From the IMG/VR virus record IMGVR_UViG_3300036830_000218, positions 1 through 30,623 of that record: DNA of 30,623 nt; one strand, 5' to 3'. Origin of the DNA: a virus (lineage: Duplodnaviria > Caudoviricetes). The position numbers and the translations under genes were made by a program. The notes under the pieces are model-generated. The model had not been told where the DNA came from, did not search any database, and saw only the letters and a program-made list of their open reading frames with translations. Positions 1 to 15,167 of the stretch are shown here, piece by piece. The first letter of the stretch is position 1; the number at the start of each line of letters is the position of its first letter.

Positions 1-315
1 CTGGATGACTTCCTGGGTGACGGCCTGCGCGTAGCCCGTGACCGAGCCGACGGCCTGGACGTGGCCCATGTTGGCGCCCTGCTGCACGTACGTGCTCGTG
101 CTGACTGGCCGGGCGCCACCGTCGGGCACCGCGCCGCCGGACACGTTCACGGTGCGCTGGTTGAAGTAGTACGTGGTGCTGTTGGTCTTCTTCGTGGAGA
201 TCGCCCGGCACCAGGGCGCGAACCGGCGCTGGTACTCGACCAGCAGCGGGTCGATGATCTTCGGGACGAACGGGGCTGCGCCGGCGGCGGTGAGCGCCTC
301 GCGGATTTCGGACAT
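1..315 (-). CDS. Major capsid protein, N-terminal part (runs off window)
   Basis: Not in ORF track. ATG at 315 with GGAAGG RBS; open for 105 codons to the window edge: MSEIREALTAAGAAPFVPKIIDPLLVEYQRRFAPWCRAISTKKTNSTTYYFNQRT... Follows scaffold in the canonical portal-protease-scaffold-capsid order; N-arm/E-loop-like pattern. Confidence 0.8.
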   Translation of the reverse strand, partial: MSEIREALTAAGAAPFVPKIIDPLLVEYQRRFAPWCRAISTKKTNSTTYYFNQRTVNVSGGAVPDGGARPVSTSTYVQQGANMGHVQAVGSVTGYAQAVTQEVIQ

Positions 316-443: not shown

Positions 444-1535
444 CTACCTGCGGCCGGGGGCCGGGTAGGCAGCGGCGGCCAGCGCGGCGAGGTCGGCGCC
501 GCTGGCCTCCTGGAGCGTCTTGGTGGTGCCCGGCGCCTGCTCGGCGATGGCCTCCAGCAGGCCCTTTCGGCCCGTGCCGGCGCCGGTCTTCTCGGCCGCG
601 GCCTGACGCAGCGGGACCAGGCGCTCCTCGATGAGGCGCTCCATGATCTGCTCGTCGGTCTCGGTGACCGACAGGCCGGCCTTCTGCGCGGCCTCGGCGA
701 CCTTGGACTCCGCCAGGGCGGTCAGGCGCGCCAGGCGCTGGTCCGCGGTCTCCGCCACGGCAGCAGCCGGGGCAGCGGTCTCGGTGGCCGCAGGCGCGGT
801 CTCCGCGGCGGGCGCGGGGGCCGTCCGGGCCAGCAGGGCGTCGAACTGCTCCTGGGTCAGGGTGACGGATGCCGGGGGCGCAGCCGCGGTCTCCGTGGTC
901 GTGGTGTCGCTCACGGCTTCCTCCTCATCGGGCGCGGCTTCTGCCGCAGTGCCGTCCGCCTCGGTGGCGGGCGCTGTGTCGGTGGCGGGTGGTTCCGCCT
1001 CGGTGGTCTCGTCCTCGGCCGCGGTCTCGTCGGGCGCGGCGTCTCCGGTGGCGCCCGCGACGTCGATGTCGCCGTCCATGTCCGGGTCCAGGGCCGCCAG
1101 GGCCTTGCACGCGGCGTCAGCGGCGGCGCGCAGGACCGGGTCGAGGTCTTCGGGGTCCAGGGAGCAGCTCGAGATGGTCAGCGACGTCGGGCCGTTGCTC
1201 GCGGTCAGGCAGTACGACCCGGCAGTGCCCGGGCTGGGGTAGTCGCCGGGCCACCACTCGGCCACGGCCTCACTGACCGAGGCAGGCTCGCCGACGAGCC
1301 ACCCGGACTCTGCGGCCACGGAGATGCCGAACTTGCTCATCGCGGCCTTGATGCGGCCCTTGATGCGCTTGAGCTGGTTCGCCGAGTACTTGCCCGCGTT
1401 GTCCTTCTGGTTGATATACGACCAGGCACTTTTGGCATGAGCCTTTGAATCTAGTGGATACCTGGACTTTTTGTCGCTCTGATAGCCCGGATCGGCATAG
1501 GTGACACCGCCATAGGGCTTGCTTGAATCAGCCAA
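444..1535 (-). CDS. Capsid scaffolding protein with N-terminal DUF6582-like domain
   Basis: ADPGY..K.RYPLD...A.SAWSYINQ..N..KY....L..IK.RIKAA...FGI motif, then an acidic Ala/Glu/Thr low-complexity region and helical C-terminus; directly upstream of capsid. Likely start is TTG at 1535 with AAGGGG RBS rather than 1625. Confidence 0.7.
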   Translation of the reverse strand: MADSSKPYGGVTYADPGYQSDKKSRYPLDSKAHAKSAWSYINQKDNAGKYSANQLKRIKGRIKAAMSKFGISVAAESGWLVGEPASVSEAVAEWWPGDYPSPGTAGSYCLTASNGPTSLTISSCSLDPEDLDPVLRAAADAACKALAALDPDMDGDIDVAGATGDAAPDETAAEDETTEAEPPATDTAPATEADGTAAEAAPDEEEAVSDTTTTETAAAPPASVTLTQEQFDALLARTAPAPAAETAPAATETAAPAAAVAETADQRLARLTALAESKVAEAAQKAGLSVTETDEQIMERLIEERLVPLRQAAAEKTGAGTGRKGLLEAIAEQAPGTTKTLQEASGADLAALAAAAYPAPGRR

Positions 1536-1551
1536 AATTGTCAGCCCCTTT

Positions 1552-1566
1552 TGGTAATGTAGGCTC
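1552..1566 (+). promoter_or_regulatory. Extended -10 promoter, leaderless, for the endonuclease gene
   Basis: TG-g-TAATGT (1552-1560) lies 6 nt before ATG 1567; no SD. Confidence 0.45.
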
Positions 1567-2289
1567 ATGCCAAGAGGTCGAGGACAGAAGCCAATGCCCA
1601 TCAGTGCGGGCACCATGTTCGGCACGCTGGAGATTGTCAGCGAGATAGAGCGGCAAGGTCACAACCGGCGATTCAACTGCCGATGCATAGGCTGTGGCAC
1701 GACCGGGATGAAGTGGCTATCGAACCTGCTCCAGGGCAAGTTGACATGCACGGTGTGCACGCCATGGAGCGAGATCACCAAGACGGCGCGCGAGAGTGTG
1801 CTCGCCACCCGGAGGGCACGCTCGCAGGAATCCGACGACGGCCGCATCTGCCTGACGTGCAACGAATGGAAGCCGTGGAGCAAATTCAGCAACGACCTGC
1901 GCCGCGAGCGGGGCAAGGCGTCGAACTGCATCGAGTGCGCTCACTGGCGCACCGTCAAGGCCGCCTACGGAATAACCCGTGCCGAGTGGGAGTGGCTGTA
2001 CAGCCTTACGGAGGGCCGATGCACGCTGTGCGACGAAGACGACCCCGTCAACTTCGCAGTTGACCACGACCACTCATGCTGCGGGAACACGCGCGCTTGC
2101 AAGAAGTGCATCCGGGGGATGCTGTGCAGGAACTGCAACATGATGATCGGCAAGGTCGAGCAGAAGCCGGCCCTCCGGCAGCGCTTCGTGGATTACCTGG
2201 ACGGGACGCGCCCGTTTCAGTCATTCGGCGCAGGTGACGCAGTTGCCATCCTCAAAGACGTGGACGTTCAGGCCGAGCACGTCGCCTAG
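1567..2289 (+). CDS. Endonuclease VII / HNH-type homing endonuclease
   Basis: YGIT...W..L....GRCTLC....AVDHDHSCC....C..CIRGMLCRNCN..IG EndoVII signature; N-terminal 'FGTLEIV...CRC.CG' and CxxC Zn motifs; antisense within the head operon. Confidence 0.9.
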   Translation: MPRGRGQKPMPISAGTMFGTLEIVSEIERQGHNRRFNCRCIGCGTTGMKWLSNLLQGKLTCTVCTPWSEITKTARESVLATRRARSQESDDGRICLTCNEWKPWSKFSNDLRRERGKASNCIECAHWRTVKAAYGITRAEWEWLYSLTEGRCTLCDEDDPVNFAVDHDHSCCGNTRACKKCIRGMLCRNCNMMIGKVEQKPALRQRFVDYLDGTRPFQSFGAGDAVAILKDVDVQAEHVA

Positions 2290-2922
2290 TTCCTGAACCT
2301 GCCGCTTCTGCGTCTCGGTCAGTTCTGGACGCGGGCCATCCTCGCGAGTTTCGCCGGCGTCCTCGGTAATGGTGGTCACTCGCGCCTCCTGGACGCTCTC
2401 GGTGATGAGCACTCGCTCCGTGGTCTCCGACCGGGCGCCGCCGCGCGTCCAGGAGAAGCTGTCCACCTGCGCCCCGGTCACCCCGGGCGTCTTGGTGTAA
2501 TCCAGGCCGGACAAAGAGAGCGAATCGCCCGTCTCGCAGTCCTCGCCGTCCGGCCCCTTGACCTTGCGGACGGTGCCCTTCCAGAAGCCCCGGATCGAGA
2601 CGCCCTTCAGGAACGCCGGCTTGCCATCGCTCGTGTCGAGGAGGCTGGCCACAGTGCGCCCGTGCTGAGTGTCGGCCAGGTCGGCCGTGAACCGGGCGTT
2701 CCCGTCCTCGTCCAGCGACATGGACCGGATCCGGCCCACGATCCGGTCGCTCGCATCCTCGGCGCCGTGGTGCGTCAGCATGGACAAATCGGCGCCCGAC
2801 TCGATGGCGGACTGGGCGGCCGACACCATCGCGGCGATGACCGGAGCCGTGTAGAGCCTGCGGTTGGCCGATACGCCGGGGCGGATGGCCACGCCGCTCA
2901 CGGTTGCGATGGTCTTCGCCAC
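2221..2922 (-). CDS. Prohead (capsid maturation) protease
   Basis: PGVSANRRLY, M.THH, IVGRI, GRTVASLL and GVSIRG motifs typical of phage prohead serine proteases; AGGAGG RBS before GTG; position upstream of scaffold. Confidence 0.75.
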   Translation of the reverse strand: MAKTIATVSGVAIRPGVSANRRLYTAPVIAAMVSAAQSAIESGADLSMLTHHGAEDASDRIVGRIRSMSLDEDGNARFTADLADTQHGRTVASLLDTSDGKPAFLKGVSIRGFWKGTVRKVKGPDGEDCETGDSLSLSGLDYTKTPGVTGAQVDSFSWTRGGARSETTERVLITESVQEARVTTITEDAGETREDGPRPELTETQKRQVQELGDVLGLNVHVFEDGNCVTCAE

Positions 2923-3770: not shown

Positions 3771-4697
3771 CTAGGCGGCCCTCCGCTGGGTGATGTAGGC
3801 GGCGTACATGTCGAACCGGACGGAATCGGTACCTTCGGACAAAGGGCTGCAACGGCACTTAATGTGGGCGGGCATCTCGGGGAAGGTCCCCGGAGTCCAC
3901 GGGTTCTCTTCCTCGTATTTGTCGCAAACTGGACAGACCCGGTCGTCCCCCGCCGTGACCCAGAGGACCCGCTCGACCTGCGCGGCGTCGTAGACGGCCA
4001 GCCACGCCGAGGACAGCGACGCGCCCATCGCGTGGTGCAGGTAGGCCGTCAGCGCCTTCGGGTCGCGCAGGTAAGCCCGGGCGAAGGCTTCCATCGCGGC
4101 AGCCGTGCCGCCCGCGACTGCCATCCCGGTCAGCGCGACCGCGAGGTCCGTGGCGCACCCGGCGATGACGGCCGCTGCGACGACCTCGGCGCTCCCCTCG
4201 GGCGCGGCCTGCTTCTGCCCGTCCTGCTCGGCGGCGTCCCAGTCGAACTGCTCGTAGCCGGCCTGGGATGCGGCCACCGCGAGCGCCGCGGCGAAGCCCT
4301 CGGCGGCAGCCAGCCCGAGGGCGGCCGTGATGTCGTCGAGGAACACGGCGAACCCCGGCTGCCCCGGCAGGATCGCGAGCATGCCCGCCGCCAGGGACAG
4401 CGCCAGCGCCCTGAGCTCGGCCTTGTGGTACCTGGCCGACGCCTGGGAGTCGCTGTCGGTGCCGAGGGCGGGCGAGCCGTCCCCGGTCATCCCGGCCTGC
4501 CTGCGCAGCGCCGTGACCATCAGGCTGACGTCGAGGCCGCGCAGGAGCTTCCGCCATGCAGCCAGGATCCCCACGGCGCTCAGGGCGTACAGGTCGTCCT
4601 GCCGCTTGTAGACGTCCGCCCACACCCCGGTCAGCGCGCCCAGCTTCAGCGTGGCCTCTGCGACGTCCGGGCCGGGCTCGCAGGTCACTCCGGGCAT
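3771..4697 (-). CDS. MuF / SPP1 gp7-like minor head (head morphogenesis) protein
   Basis: C-terminal WVTAGDDRVCPVC...PAHIKCRC motif; downstream of portal. Confidence 0.85.
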   Translation of the reverse strand: MPGVTCEPGPDVAEATLKLGALTGVWADVYKRQDDLYALSAVGILAAWRKLLRGLDVSLMVTALRRQAGMTGDGSPALGTDSDSQASARYHKAELRALALSLAAGMLAILPGQPGFAVFLDDITAALGLAAAEGFAAALAVAASQAGYEQFDWDAAEQDGQKQAAPEGSAEVVAAAVIAGCATDLAVALTGMAVAGGTAAAMEAFARAYLRDPKALTAYLHHAMGASLSSAWLAVYDAAQVERVLWVTAGDDRVCPVCDKYEEENPWTPGTFPEMPAHIKCRCSPLSEGTDSVRFDMYAAYITQRRAA

Positions 4698-4825
4698 CAG
4701 CTGATGATCTTCGGAACGAACGGCTTCGCCTCGGCGGCCGTCAGCGACCCGTCACCCGGCATCCCCGGAGCGGGGTTAGTGCCGGGGATCTGGTATGGCT
4801 GCTCCTGCACGGGAGGCTGGCTCAT
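4697..4825 (-). CDS. 42-aa microprotein ending in a copy of the capsid N-terminal motif
   Basis: MSQPPVQEQPYQIPGTNPAPGMPGDGSLTAAEAKPFVPKIIS. ATGA overlap with portal stop, TGATG overlap with MuF start, GAGGAGG upstream. Confidence 0.75.
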   Translation of the reverse strand: MSQPPVQEQPYQIPGTNPAPGMPGDGSLTAAEAKPFVPKIIS

Positions 4826-6333
4826 GCCGCGTCCTCCTCGATGGTGCGCCACCGGGCGAGCGCCTCGCGGAACCGGGCGTGGTAGGCGGCGCGGAACGCC
4901 TCGGCCGGATCGCTGGGCTCGTCGTCCTGGTCTCCGCCGGCCTGCCCGTCACCCGTAGGCGGCTGGCCGGGAACTGCGAGCACGGGAGGCGGCGGCTGCT
5001 CCGCCTTGGTGACCTGCGCCGCCGAGATCGCTGACAGGTCCCGGTACAGGACCATCTCCTGGCGGTTGACGATGAACGCGTCATCGCCGCCCTCCACCGG
5101 AGGCTCGTCGATGTCGGACGCGTACCGGTTGCGGGTCCAGGACCCGTTGCGGAGCCGGATGTCGCGGATCTGCTCGACGGTGAGGGAGTCCCGGTAGTCA
5201 ACCTCGCCGAACTTGGAGTGCCAGTCCTGCACCCCGAAACCCTGCACGGCGATGTGGAAGTTCAGCTTCTCCAGCACGATCGCGCCGAGCGGGTCGCAGG
5301 TGTTGATATGGAACATCCGGTGCTGCGCATCGCCCGTGCCGCCGCCGAGGTTCCCGGACTCGATGATGCCGGCCTCGGCGGGCGGGACCCCGTAGCCGGC
5401 GACGATCTCGTCGCGGCTGTCCTTCTTCGCCGCGAGGGCGTCGGCGAGCTTCCCGGACTGGAGCTCGGTCAGGGTGCCGCCGCCGCGGGTCATCCACGGG
5501 TTCCCGATGTTCCTCGACCCGATGTTCTGCACGGTGGCCTGGTTGCGCCACTTCTCCGCGTCAGCGGGCGAGACGCTCACGGGCAGGTCGGCGTGCACCG
5601 TCGGGGGGAGGCCCTTGCGGAGCATCTCTTTCGCCGTGCCGTGCGCGAACAGCCACGCCGCGATCGGGCCGAGCATCGCCTGCGTCGGCGAGATGCCGAA
5701 CACGCCGGGGCGGGCGCTGTCGAGGCTGATGTGGATGATCTCGCGGGGCTCGAACTCGGCGCGCTGCCCGAAGTCCGTCACCTGCACGTACTTGGAGATG
5801 ACGCCGTGCTCGTCGGCGTCCGGGTACGTCGTGGCGACGTCCTGGTTGTACAGGGCAACCGGGGTCGGCCCCGACCAGCACACCTCGAGCATGGCATCGC
5901 CGAACACCAGCAGGTCGGCAATGACGTTCCGGAGCAGTTGCCGGATGTCCTGCGTGGGGTTGCAGAACGCGTAGAACCGTTCCAGGGCGACAACCGCGGG
6001 CGGCTTGTCCGGGGCTTCCTGGTCGCCCTCGCCGTCGTCGGAGTCCCAGTCGCTGACGATGCCGCCCGCGGTGATCGTGCGGGCGATGGCCTGCACGCTC
6101 GTCCACGCCCACGGGCACGTCAGGTAGGCGTCATTCAAGTCCGACATCATCGACCGGCGGTCAGAGCCGGTCGATGCGCCTATGGCCTGGGTGTTCTCGT
6201 TGATGCCGCCCTGCGGGACGCCGGGGATGTAACCGGTGCGCGGGGGAAGCTGGTTGAAGCCCGGGCCGGCATCCGACGCGGCAGGCCGGCGGCGGAACGC
6301 GGGCGGGACGAGGCTGGAGAGGGGCACGCGCAA
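4822..6333 (-). CDS. Portal protein
   Basis: 503 aa; DLLVFGDAMLEV, EIIHI, GISP, RDEIVAGYGVPP..G and T.N motifs of HK97-like portals; GGGAGG RBS; follows TerL. Confidence 0.9.
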   Translation of the reverse strand: MRVPLSSLVPPAFRRRPAASDAGPGFNQLPPRTGYIPGVPQGGINENTQAIGASTGSDRRSMMSDLNDAYLTCPWAWTSVQAIARTITAGGIVSDWDSDDGEGDQEAPDKPPAVVALERFYAFCNPTQDIRQLLRNVIADLLVFGDAMLEVCWSGPTPVALYNQDVATTYPDADEHGVISKYVQVTDFGQRAEFEPREIIHISLDSARPGVFGISPTQAMLGPIAAWLFAHGTAKEMLRKGLPPTVHADLPVSVSPADAEKWRNQATVQNIGSRNIGNPWMTRGGGTLTELQSGKLADALAAKKDSRDEIVAGYGVPPAEAGIIESGNLGGGTGDAQHRMFHINTCDPLGAIVLEKLNFHIAVQGFGVQDWHSKFGEVDYRDSLTVEQIRDIRLRNGSWTRNRYASDIDEPPVEGGDDAFIVNRQEMVLYRDLSAISAAQVTKAEQPPPPVLAVPGQPPTGDGQAGGDQDDEPSDPAEAFRAAYHARFREALARWRTIEEDAA

Positions 6334-8094: not shown

Positions 8095-9204
8095 TCAGGC
8101 AGCGAACAAGGCGGCCTGCACCCACACGGACGGGGCGGATTCGCCCGCGCACGTCGCACCAGGCTGAACGATAAGCCAGGATGCTGCAACGTCTAGAACC
8201 AAGGCGACGCAGGAGATGTCGAAATACTCGCGGCCCCTGATGGGCTTCTCGCCCGCAAGTTCCAAGGCCGCCATCACCGCGCGCTCGGCATCGGGGGCTA
8301 CGGTTCCCGGAAGCCCCGTCGCCAAGCGGACTACGTCGCGGTACCCCTGTGCGGCATGGGCGCGCAACCTAGGCCGGGGATCGCCTGACGTGATACCGAA
8401 CTTCACGCCGGCGGGCCCCGTGACAACGTAGAAGGCATCCCACGTCATGCCCCTGCACGCCCGGCAGACGCCGCCACCAGCAAGAACGCTGGCAGGCCAG
8501 GGGCTGCACGAGTGCCCGGCGGCGCACCTCACGGCGTGCGGGCGGCCAGTACCGGCCCACGCCTCGTAGAGCGGCACTGCGCCGAGCTCCGCGAGCCGGG
8601 CACGGAACCTTTTCTCGACCGTCGCCGAGTCGCGTCCGATACACACCCGGCAGATTCCGTCACCGTCTCGGACGTCGTTCGGCCGGGGGTAAGACTCATG
8701 CCCGTTCACACACCGGACATGATGGCCGGCACCGGAGCCCCGGTACTGCTCATACAAGGGAGTGGCCCCGAGTTCGGCCAGCCGAGCCAGGAACGCCGCC
8801 TCGGCCGTATCCGGATCCCTGCCTACGCAGACTCGGCAAGGACCGCGGCCCATTTTGAGGCTGTCCGGGGAGGGCCGGCATTCATGGCCTGCCGAGCACC
8901 GAACGCGATGGCCAGAGGAGCTCTTGATGTACGGCTCCAGCAGCGTGGCGCCGAACTCGGCGAGCCGTGCGAGAAACTCGGCTTCAGCCACGGCGGGGTC
9001 CTTGCCCGCGCATGTTATGCACAGGCCCTGGCCTTGCTGAAGGCTATTCGGGCGCGGTCGGCATGCGTGACCCGAACGGCACGTTACGCGATGTTTGACC
9101 AGAGCGCCCAGCCATACGGGCTCAAGTAATTCCGCGCCCAATTCGGCCAGTCGCGTCCTGAAGGCACCTTCGGCTGCCAGCGACGCGGGAGAACGGATGG
9201 CCAT
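8095..9204 (-). CDS. Zn-finger-repeat protein with C-terminal GIY-YIG (T5orf172-like) nuclease; probable homing endonuclease
   Basis: Four ~62-aa repeats F..RLAE.GA..L.......H.V.C..GH...P.P.....G.G.C..C, then FYVV....VKFGIT...RL..H...E...REYF; start ATG 9204; sits between terS and terL. Confidence 0.75.
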   Translation of the reverse strand: MAIRSPASLAAEGAFRTRLAELGAELLEPVWLGALVKHRVTCRSGHACRPRPNSLQQGQGLCITCAGKDPAVAEAEFLARLAEFGATLLEPYIKSSSGHRVRCSAGHECRPSPDSLKMGRGPCRVCVGRDPDTAEAAFLARLAELGATPLYEQYRGSGAGHHVRCVNGHESYPRPNDVRDGDGICRVCIGRDSATVEKRFRARLAELGAVPLYEAWAGTGRPHAVRCAAGHSCSPWPASVLAGGGVCRACRGMTWDAFYVVTGPAGVKFGITSGDPRPRLRAHAAQGYRDVVRLATGLPGTVAPDAERAVMAALELAGEKPIRGREYFDISCVALVLDVAASWLIVQPGATCAGESAPSVWVQAALFAA

Positions 9205-13039: not shown

Positions 13040-13312
13040 TCAATCTCGGCTGAGCCAGCCAGCCATCTCGCGGCTGACAGACAGCAGGTTGCGGGGCTCT
13101 GCGGTAGCGCGTGCGGCCAGGACGACGGCCAGCCTGCGGCGATTGAACGTCACGTCGTCGTCGGCCTGCTGGATCCACTCGGCGACCTGCTCGGCCGGGC
13201 GGAACAGGGATGCGAGGTCAATAGGCGACTCGGCTGCCGGGCGCAGCATCGACGTGATCGCGGACATGGCCAGCGCCCGCGAACTGATCGGCCCCTGGAT
13301 GTCATGCAGCAT
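13040..13312 (-). CDS. Hypothetical helical protein
   Basis: Overlaps the end of the TraB-like gene and fills the gap. Confidence 0.45.
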   Translation of the reverse strand: MLHDIQGPISSRALAMSAITSMLRPAAESPIDLASLFRPAEQVAEWIQQADDDVTFNRRRLAVVLAARATAEPRNLLSVSREMAGWLSRD

Positions 13313-15167
13313 CTCGGAGTACCTGCCCTTCTCCTGTGTACTCCCAGGACGGGAGCCATTTCGGCGAGCCTGGCACGGCGTGCGGGACGCGGGCCGCGTT
13401 GGCGATGTCCTTCGCGAACGCCGCGTCGAGCGGCAGCAGGCCGCCCATCTCCGCTGCGTCGACCTCGGCCTCTTCCTCGCCGACCCACACGCTGCGGAAC
13501 GTCGCAGCTGACCGGTGGTCGACGGAGTTGATGTAGCCCAGTCCGCCGATGTCCGATGGCAGGTGGAACGGCTGCCCCTGGATCCCCAGGAACGTGGCGT
13601 TGAGGTTCTCCGCGCTGCGGAAGGCCACGGCCTGCATCGCGGCGAGGGACTGGCGCAGCGCCCGGGACTTCATCTCGGCCAGGCCGGCGAGCTGGTTGCC
13701 GACGACCAGCGCCATGCCGGCTTTGCGGCCCAGCTTGCCGATCTGGGACAGGATGTACTCGGCCTCGCCTGCGTAGTCGCGGTGCTGGAGCAGCAGGTGC
13801 ATCTCGTCGAGGATGACCAGCATCAGCGGCAGTTCCCAGGTGGGCCGGAACCGGCCGACGCCGCGGATCTCGCGGCCCTTGGAGTCGATCCAGGGCGTGT
13901 TCCCCAGCCGGGCCGAGCGCTTCAGCAGCGCCGCGTACAGGGACCGCAGGGCCGCCATCGACGAGTCGGTGCCCAGGGCGGTGAGGTCTACGCGGCCGGT
14001 CCAGCCGGGCAGCGACTGGGCCTGCGGGTCGAGGATCCACCGCCGGATCAGCCGGCGGCCCTCCGCGTCCACGGCCACCCCGGCCTCGGCCAGCAGCAGC
14101 GACAGGAACCCGGACTTTCCCGAGCCGGTGGAACCGGTGGCGATGCAGTGCGCGGCGCCGGAGCCGGGCTTCCAGAACCGGTACCGGGCAGGCTCGCTGT
14201 CGCCGAACCAGCCGGCGGTGATGATGCCCTCGTCCAGGTCGAGCGTGGAGCCGGCCCACATCTGGGCCTCGGTGAACTGCCGCGAGTTGGTGATGACCGA
14301 CACGTCGGCGCGGGACCGGGAACGTGACCTGCCGTGCTCGACGGCGACCTGCTCCCACGGCACGTCGTAGAGGGAGCAGATCCGGTCGTGGACCTGCGAC
14401 ACGCTGCCGGTGGTCTGCTTGCCGCGGACGAGCTGGACGCCGAGGCGGAACCCGTTGGTGATCGGCGAGAACGCCACGACCTCGGGCTCATGGCCGGTCT
14501 CGGCCTTATGGGTGCGGGCGGCCATCTCCAGCAGCGGCCCCTCGGCGCTGAACTTGCAGTCGCCGCCCTCGGGGCACCAGGCGTAGCCGCCGGGGTCGGC
14601 GAAGGCGAGCGGGCCGTCTTTCAGGCAGAACGCCTCGCGGAACGCGGCGACCTGAGGGGGGATGTGCGGACCGCGGGCCGGCTCGACCGAGGCCTGGGGT
14701 TCGTGCTCGCGGAACCGGCGGCGCTGCGCCCGCAGCCACGGGGCGGCGGCAATAGCGCCGCCGCCAAGGAGAAGCCCCTGGGCAAGCGGGCTGCTCACGC
14801 CGGCCGCTGCGCCGGCGAGAGCCGTAGCGGTCCCGGCACCCCAGTAGCCGGCCGCCTGCCACTGGACGCTGCGGTGGCGCTTGCGGTTCCGCCACGCCAG
14901 CCGGGCGCCGATGACGGCCGAGGACGTCCCGATGACATACGCGGCCCACGGGAACGGGATCAGGTGGCCGGCGAGCGCTGCGCTGTCGGCTGCGGCGATC
15001 CACGCGGGCGCGGCGAGGTAGGAGTGGTGGTGCACCATGGACGCAGGCCGGAACTCGGCAAGGCGTGCAGCCTTCTTCTCGGCCAGCGCCTGCGCCGCGC
15101 GGATATCCGCCAGCGCAGTCTCCATGCGCTTCAGCTCAGCCGGGCCGAGCGCGGTCTTGACTGCCAT
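13302..15167 (-). CDS. FtsK/SpoIIIE-family conjugative DNA translocase (TraB-like)
   Basis: N-terminal TM helices, Walker A GSTGSGKS, ILDPQ, Walker B LVILDEMH, GRKAGM, NQ and GLGY motifs; AAGGAGG RBS; Spd-like neighbours. Confidence 0.85.
   Translation of the reverse strand: MAVKTALGPAELKRMETALADIRAAQALAEKKAARLAEFRPASMVHHHSYLAAPAWIAAADSAALAGHLIPFPWAAYVIGTSSAVIGARLAWRNRKRHRSVQWQAAGYWGAGTATALAGAAAGVSSPLAQGLLLGGGAIAAAPWLRAQRRRFREHEPQASVEPARGPHIPPQVAAFREAFCLKDGPLAFADPGGYAWCPEGGDCKFSAEGPLLEMAARTHKAETGHEPEVVAFSPITNGFRLGVQLVRGKQTTGSVSQVHDRICSLYDVPWEQVAVEHGRSRSRSRADVSVITNSRQFTEAQMWAGSTLDLDEGIITAGWFGDSEPARYRFWKPGSGAAHCIATGSTGSGKSGFLSLLLAEAGVAVDAEGRRLIRRWILDPQAQSLPGWTGRVDLTALGTDSSMAALRSLYAALLKRSARLGNTPWIDSKGREIRGVGRFRPTWELPLMLVILDEMHLLLQHRDYAGEAEYILSQIGKLGRKAGMALVVGNQLAGLAEMKSRALRQSLAAMQAVAFRSAENLNATFLGIQGQPFHLPSDIGGLGYINSVDHRSAATFRSVWVGEEEAEVDAAEMGGLLPLDAAFAKDIANAARVPHAVPGSPKWLPSWEYTGEGQVLRDAA

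Follow-up and report, generated by a model that had tools for sequence, protein, structure and literature searches.

A 42-codon gene between the portal and MuF-like genes in the head module of a soil phage ends in a 15-residue copy of the N-terminal arm of the phage's own major capsid protein. By its reading frame, ribosome-binding site and signature of purifying selection, it is an independent, conserved, protein-coding gene. Its product (the mini-protein) is likely a minor head or portal-vertex protein or a capsid-docking peptide of an undescribed family. To judge from the sequences, the copied tail very probably binds the arm site on the capsid at some stage. We tentatively propose, at somewhat less than an even chance, that the mini-protein is a low-copy spare arm that would fill empty arm-binding grooves around the portal vertex.

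The window, which is the whole stretch of DNA analysed here, is a single contig of 30,623 bases with a minus-strand phage head module in its left part (Table 1). PF17236 is present in homologs of the window capsid protein, and the scaffold role of the upstream neighbour of the capsid gene is probable from its position and composition.

Table 1. Features of the window.
Feature	Position	Strand	Evidence or remark
Repeat-containing endonuclease gene	8095-9135	-	upstream of terminase
FtsK/SpoIIIE-like gene	13302-15167	-	phrog_1358, E 4e-6
Terminase	8076-6508	-	head module
Portal protein	4822..6333	-	PF04860 E 3e-19; phrog_12 E 2e-31
Shine-Dalgarno-like GAGGAGG	4833..4839	-	within the 3' end of the portal gene; from sequence, putative function
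Mini-gene, 42 aa	4697..4825	-	Pro/Gln-rich N-terminal part and C-terminal capsid N-arm copy
N-arm copy, 15 residues (codons 28-42)	4700..4744	-	copies capsid residues 8-22; flush with the stop codon
MuF-like head morphogenesis protein	3771..4697	-	phrog_4728 E 2.5e-5, C-terminal part only (residues 217-285)
Two small genes			between the MuF-like gene and the head protease
Head maturation protease	2221..2922	-	phrog_207 E 1.7e-6
Endonuclease VII-type gene	1567-2289	+	opposite strand, between protease and scaffold
Probable scaffold	444..1625	-	DUF6582 at the N-terminus; Ala/Glu/Thr-rich
Major capsid protein, N-terminal 105 aa	1..315	-	cut by the contig end; phrog_752; HK97 fold
Original motif, capsid N-arm residues 8-22	250..294	-	directly before the first well-predicted helix (residues 23-32)

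The mini-gene begins with ATG and overlaps both of its neighbours, the portal stop codon at its start (ATGA) and the MuF-like start codon at its stop (TGATG), as the first-pass annotation had described. GAGGAGG, a strong Shine-Dalgarno-like element, lies 7 nt upstream of the start, and the GC content at the third codon position is 0.84. The gene reported by that annotation, which did not state the minus strand, thus stands up by its own ribosome-binding site, its conserved frame and purifying selection. Mini-protein residues 28–41 are identical to capsid residues 8–21 at 12 of 14 positions, which reproduces the reported match, and the last 15 residues match capsid residues 8–22 at 12 of 15 positions in the window. 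The local alignment between the mini-protein and capsid residues 1–45 scores 56, compared with a maximum of 39 in 500 shuffles, and the runner-up motif match across the six frames of the window reaches 6 of 14 positions. When an N-arm copy was sought in seven other head-module proteins of the window, the alignment scores were at chance level (p 0.36–0.98; head protease, p 0.40), and a copy in the portal, MuF, scaffold, protease or terminase protein was rejected; local alignment of the window portal with the capsid N-terminus is likewise at chance level. A contig from sequencing run X2 is identical to the window over positions 4672–4822, and either run X1 or run X2 may be the source sample. Among the listed variants of run X1, all four that fall inside the mini-gene are synonymous.

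To model the capsid shell protein, the sequence of the relative L001 was used, which is 98% identical to the window fragment. A first model built from 39 sequences was poor (pLDDT 68.9) and was replaced by a 149-sequence AlphaFold model of the HK97 type with a pLDDT of 85.4. In a Foldseek search, the nearest solved fold is SPO1 gp6.1 (9vel, E 2.8e-20), and HK97 (1ohg) and encapsulins are also matched; a sequence profile further relates the L001 capsid to phage 812. Residues 2–9 and 12–20 of the model are of low confidence (pLDDT below 50 for residues 12–20), and an ordered helix spans residues 23–32. Because of these low-confidence residues and the helix start at residue 23, the copied residues 8–22 are taken as the free arm of the predicted capsid fold. 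Arms of this kind are usually predicted poorly, which one study, in its accessible part, attributes to their contacts with other subunits (10.1101/2022.09.09.507160). The last copied residue directly precedes the first ordered capsid helix. In profile–profile alignment, the mini-protein family aligns only to capsid residues 5–22 (E 9.6e-5), compared with an E value of 0.19 against the portal. L001 capsid residues of about 250–395 form an inserted β-rich domain that aligns weakly with the SPO1 and phage 812 capsids and suggests a link between these actinophages and Herelleviridae-type shells.

The tail of the mini-protein and the capsid arm share hydrophobic residues at positions 1, 3, 9, 10 and 14 of the motif and differ systematically at two others. 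Position 5 is Gly in 90% of arms and mostly Asp, Lys or Arg in tails. Position 15 is Asp in 90% of arms, whereas the tails carry Gly, Ala or Ser followed by the stop codon, and 90 of the 100 mini-proteins end exactly at the motif end. The residues before the motif differ as well. The capsid motif is preceded by x-x-E-A in all 62 records, likely the maturation site with a cut after Glu6, as we presume from the specificity of T4-type proteases. The copy is preceded by Pro in 89 of 100 mini-proteins and by x-E-[AST] in none of the 100, and by this sequence criterion the tail is not a copied cut site. Since the cut site is absent and no protease is attached, binding itself, not cleavage, has probably been selected in the mini-protein family.

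The mini-gene is close to universal among relatives of the window. Portal searches yielded 179 loci, including prophage or plasmid records from Streptomyces, Kitasatospora, Peterkaempfera, Saccharothrix, Amycolatopsis, Actinomycetospora and Streptosporangiaceae. The relatives comprise phages and prophages of actinobacteria whose capsid has an SPO1-like HK97 fold. A 15-column tail profile was built from 99 ORF ends near portal stops, chosen by a pattern that was written after both motifs had been seen. Above a cut-off of 14, it finds at most two sites per locus, namely the short-ORF tail and the capsid N-arm. Capsid N-arms score 14.5–38.5, compared with a maximum of 10.0 on 1.58 million reverse-strand windows. 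A complete portal gene is present in 158 of 180 records (179 loci and the window), and 139 of these 158 contain the tail; after deduplication, 102 of the 119 distinct portals that are complete have the tail, counting those with short flanks. Absence from relatives had been named in the first-pass annotation as grounds for doubt, and the mini-gene is instead found in 46 of the 50 distinct loci that span the portal to the capsid gene. The four loci without a tail match are L091 (divergent ORF), L086 (broken ORF) and the Streptomyces loci L081 and L085, which have neither the mini-gene nor any other copy. Because L081 and L085 lack the gene and L086 carries it broken, the mini-gene may be dispensable. 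Four distant Elusimicrobia portal loci (30–35% identity) contain neither a tail match nor a recognisable capsid gene. Cultured phages in GenBank include no close relative (portal matches of at most 29% identity and none for the capsid fragment), and a genome scan with a single portal protein as the query gave no matches.

The 100 distinct mini-proteins from the loci have a median length of 44 aa, and 97 of them are 25–60 aa long, with script-chosen start codons that leave some N-termini uncertain. Their N-terminal parts are Pro/Glu/Asp-rich across the family. Protein searches gave 145 matches among 348 candidates, and the 112 mini-protein representatives (50% identity, E≤0.001) are all 29–152 aa long; those with names are labelled 'hypothetical' or 'uncharacterized', and some have longer Cys-rich extensions. 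A zinc-finger-like N-terminal module (CxxC-x12-CxxxH) occurs in six of the 100 mini-proteins (L020, L022, L024, L054, L109 and L152), which fall in at least three separate tree branches. The mini-gene starts between -30 and +10 nt from the portal stop in 58 of 100 cases, and many family members have their own Shine-Dalgarno sites. Relocated mini-genes are found upstream of the portal (L152:9811-9957) and 3–5 kb downstream (L064:10806-10943 and L089:15145-15276).

Conservation at the protein level, proposed in the first-pass annotation from synonymous differences, is borne out in the window and across the family. In the window, 4 of the 12 shared codons differ synonymously. In 41 disjoint close pairs, the tail is under purifying selection (pN/pS 0.34), and its mismatches at codon positions 1, 2 and 3 number 84, 51 and 164. 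The 15 codons before the tail also exhibit a coding pattern, with 29, 25 and 97 mismatches over 24 pairs.

A second expectation, that the tail co-varies with the arm of its own capsid, fared less clearly. Across 42 unique pairs, the tail shares 7.0 of 15 residues with its own arm and 6.3 with shuffled arms (p 5e-5), a comparison in which related phages share states. To control for the tree, 68 distinct pairs were placed on a capsid tree made with FastTree and examined in 21 branch-disjoint comparisons; on average, 11 of these favoured co-variation, 3.5 opposed it and 6.4 were ties (median p 0.057, worst 0.61). The co-variation is significant without kinship correction and borderline with it, and it is suggestive at the sequence level. 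The identity between tail and arm ranges from 3 to 13 of 15 across the family with a median of 7, which places the window (12 of 15) near the top. All 10 loci whose arm carries Phe at position 9 carry it in the tail as well; in the arms this Phe arose twice on the capsid tree, in the window's clade and in Catenulispora, and in four further tails it is paired with Leu in the arm. No co-variation is seen at position 8. Every one of the 42 tails keeps Lys12, although 12 of the 42 arms have Thr there, and thus the tail does not simply track its own arm. Single-position tree tests gave no significance, with too few independent pairs.

Searches of family, structure and literature resources returned no description of the mini-protein. 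No family of Pfam, PHROGs or NCBIfam is matched by more than one of the 65 aligned members at E≤0.1, PADLOC gives no match at 0.01, the best PDB match is unrelated (E 0.1), and the atlas contains no match. In the accessible full-text literature, neither the mini-protein family nor proteins that copy a capsid arm are described. The same literature contains no description of the Herelleviridae protease arm copy presented below, and the accessible parts of the reports on Douge (PMC13033339) and the phage 812 neck (PMC12886913) contain nothing relevant.

Two other phage groups contain protein-level copies of their own capsid N-terminal regions. In SPO1, residues 161–217 of the gp3.2 prohead protease, encoded at L276:28158-28928, match gp6.1 residues 15–71 (E 2.4e-6). 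An arm copy is found in seven of seven Herelleviridae proteases, those of SPO1 and of six phages from a spread list of 759 records (P108, LP-Mix_6.1, phi EF7H, Bcp1, LfeInf and 010DV005), with scores of 61–115 against shuffle maxima of 44–58; the best match of the protease is its own capsid in only two of the seven. Among SPO1 genes, gp2.7 (a chain of 9vel) and six other small genes have no arm copy, only the protease matches in 37 kb, and no PDB chain corresponds to the gp3.2 arm-copy fragment. The Herelleviridae protease is a low-copy head protein with such a copy, as the mini-protein is proposed to be. The Herelleviridae copy is 35–60 residues long, is fused behind the protease domain and spans the presumed capsid cut site, whereas the mini-protein is free, its 15-residue copy is terminal and has no cut site, and the window protease contains no copy. 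In purified particles of CKA15, a P100-like Listeria phage, the protease was detected by four peptides (29.5% coverage), which the authors regard as residual amounts in the accessible text (PMC12282133).

T4 gp61.1 (NP_049649.1, 54 aa, annotated as hypothetical) copies gp23 residues 57–93 with a score of 82 against a shuffle maximum of 51. It resembles the mini-protein as a small stand-alone copy of its own capsid N-terminal region. In T4 gp61.1, however, the copy occupies an N-terminal to central position after a Glu site and the tail is basic; the gene belongs to the replication region, and the sequence exhibits no similarity to the mini-protein tail profile (score -26.6). Because the mini-protein keeps the copy without a cut site, self-cleavage alone cannot account for such copies, and the family helps interpret the unexplained arm copies in SPO1- and phage K-type proteases and in T4 gp61.1.

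The near-core gene, its coupling to the portal, the copy of exactly the free arm and its end at the point where the arm joins the capsid body all fit a spare arm at the portal vertex. In HK97-fold shells, N-arms make inter-capsomer contacts, as stated in the available part of a preprint (Jabs, 10.64898/2026.07.24.740622), and the 80alpha arm reaches onto neighbours (PMC5744158, accessible sections). The mini-protein tail would take the site that the capsid arm uses on an adjacent subunit, with its free C-terminal carboxylate standing in for the side chain of arm Asp22. Translational coupling would yield the mini-protein at about the level of the portal and hence few copies per head, which would go to the single vertex where the arms of a penton are missing. 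Contacts with the portal or the MuF protein would fall to the N-terminal part, which is Pro/acidic or zinc-finger-like. If the arm site lies within capsomers, the portal hexons would have no vacancy. The borderline co-variation, the invariant Lys12, the loci that lack the mini-gene and the motifs distant from the portal stop also count against the spare arm.

Other phages compensate for the missing penton either by rearranging arms or with additional proteins. In the available text of the respective reports, the PVP and Dec arms make up for it in P74-26 (PMC12407722), gp57 does so in crAss001 (PMC10172136), and the T4 portal whisker is counted among portal-vertex compensations (PMC9958956). 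The P74-26 PVP and the crAss001 PVA gp57 are low-copy proteins that replace contacts lost at the portal, as proposed for the mini-protein. The accessible parts of these two reports describe folded or dimeric bodies, with the PVP arm adding a strand to the capsid P-domain, and report no sequence copy of a capsid arm; the vertex location of the mini-protein, in contrast, is only proposed. How a 12-fold portal sits in a 5-fold hole without the arm contacts of a penton is a standing question that has been answered phage by phage. It is conceivable, but doubtful, that an encoded spare arm is a general solution in many HK97-fold phages, supplied as a free mini-protein in actinophages and T4 (gp61.1) or as a released protease tail in Herelleviridae. 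If so, the spare arm would be a general, overlooked portal-vertex component and a solution that is recognisable and predictable at the sequence level, and the mini-protein family without a cut site would be its minimal form.

The main rival to the spare arm, itself unlikely on balance, is a transient loading tag or adaptor. In the immature procapsid, with the real arm folded away elsewhere, the tail would occupy the arm groove. It would carry into the head the portal, the MuF protein or the variable module at its own N-terminus, and expansion would displace it. The architecture suits this role, given a C-terminal motif behind a Pro-rich linker and variable N-terminal parts that include the zinc-finger-like pattern and the Cys-rich extensions. 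Encapsulin cargo-loading peptides have a similar design, with a terminal motif on a flexible linker. Docking on an HK97-fold shell near the N-arm is what the mini-protein would share with them and with the C-terminal helix of the 80alpha scaffold. In Herelleviridae, moreover, the copy is carried by the protease, which has to get inside the prohead. According to the accessible sections on 80alpha, the scaffold holds the arm in the procapsid and the arm shifts on maturation; this scaffold binds the arm helix instead of copying the arm (PMC5744158). The mini-protein, however, has no enzyme cargo fused to it, unlike encapsulin-type peptides, and its usual 25–60 residues leave it without folded cargo. 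A long fused form was not found among 7,999 longer candidates, which gave only three matches of 110–152 aa and count as weak evidence.

It is quite improbable that the mini-protein acts across the shell as a cement or assembly modulator by binding arm sites on many capsomers or by capping growing shells. Small minor capsid proteins that are disordered when free can stabilise actinophage shells, as described in the available text on Patience gp4 (102 aa) and Adjutor gp4 (54 aa; PMC11965321). In that text, the two proteins occupy split hexamers throughout the shell without being called arm copies, and their sequences are not similar to the mini-protein. The mini-gene is coupled to the portal gene and not to the capsid gene, the arm sites of a complete shell are already filled by the capsid's own arms, and the mini-protein has no similarity to solved minor capsid proteins.

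A decoy against capsid-sensing host immunity, put forward in the first-pass annotation, or a weapon against rival phages is poorly supported and very unlikely. The tail does reproduce a capsid surface motif, and late expression would presumably coincide with capsid synthesis. The mini-gene is nevertheless near-core, unlike patchy accessory genes, and is fixed in the head module across Streptomyces, Pseudonocardiaceae, Catenulispora, Streptosporangiaceae and metagenomic lineages; the same design also occurs inside an assembly enzyme in Herelleviridae. Similarly remote is a non-cleavable substrate mimic that times the head protease, in which the tail would present the residues after the presumed cut site with Pro replacing the cleavable bond. 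The contrast between x-x-E-A before the capsid motif and Pro before the copy agrees with such a mimic. The cut site itself is only presumed, and the scaffold contains 17 E-[TAS] sites in 393 aa that lack the 15-residue context, which makes it unlikely that the protease depends on this context.

It is scarcely credible, and largely refuted, that the mini-gene is merely an extension of the portal by frameshift or readthrough, the product of a recent DNA duplication, or a neutral remnant. The overlap with the portal stop and a slight family-wide excess of identical tail/arm codons (177 of 322 against 159 expected; z 2.1, from non-independent pairs) speak for it. Adjacent starts, however, lie in the +1 frame in 42 of 58 cases and in the -1 frame in 16, which rules out a portal frameshift fusion. 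In 24 of 100 cases, the motif is located upstream of the portal stop or at a distance of more than 250 nt, which disfavours frameshift or readthrough; many mini-genes have their own Shine-Dalgarno sites, and the tail is under purifying selection. In the window, the codons shared by tail and arm are identical about as often as chance predicts (8 identical codons against 6.7 expected from codon usage), which argues against recent DNA copying or gene conversion there.

Related prophages reside in cultured strains of Streptomyces, Saccharothrix and Catenulispora, among them Streptomyces xanthochromogenes JCM 4612 (L082) and Saccharothrix hoggarensis (L087), and the spare-arm proposal is thus experimentally tractable. 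A 15-residue capsid-docking peptide is also a possible tool for loading cargo into phage heads.

Further features were observed in the portal genes and in the surrounding loci. The C-terminus of the window portal (4822-4890) contains [RK]-[LF]-x-E-A-[LM], which resembles the residues right before the capsid arm motif, and a conserved helix with this pattern lies in the last 40 residues of 62 of 125 distinct portals. This helix could serve as a protease site or represent a second short capsid-like element. In L009–L017, L101, L104, L108 and others, the portal frame is longer and ends in a domain with a conserved W-A-Y-[VT]-G, which is not found in the window and which, judged by eye, is at a guess ParB-like. 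The relative L091 was deposited as pCMC57_01, a complete 97.9-kb plasmid of Kitasatospora, and given this record and the FtsK/SpoIIIE-like gene of the window, the phages that carry the mini-gene may be phage-plasmids. Downstream of the capsid and head–tail genes, two loci (L005:10132-10740 and L006:19105-19770) encode a very basic protein with tandem Lys/Ser/Arg-rich repeats.
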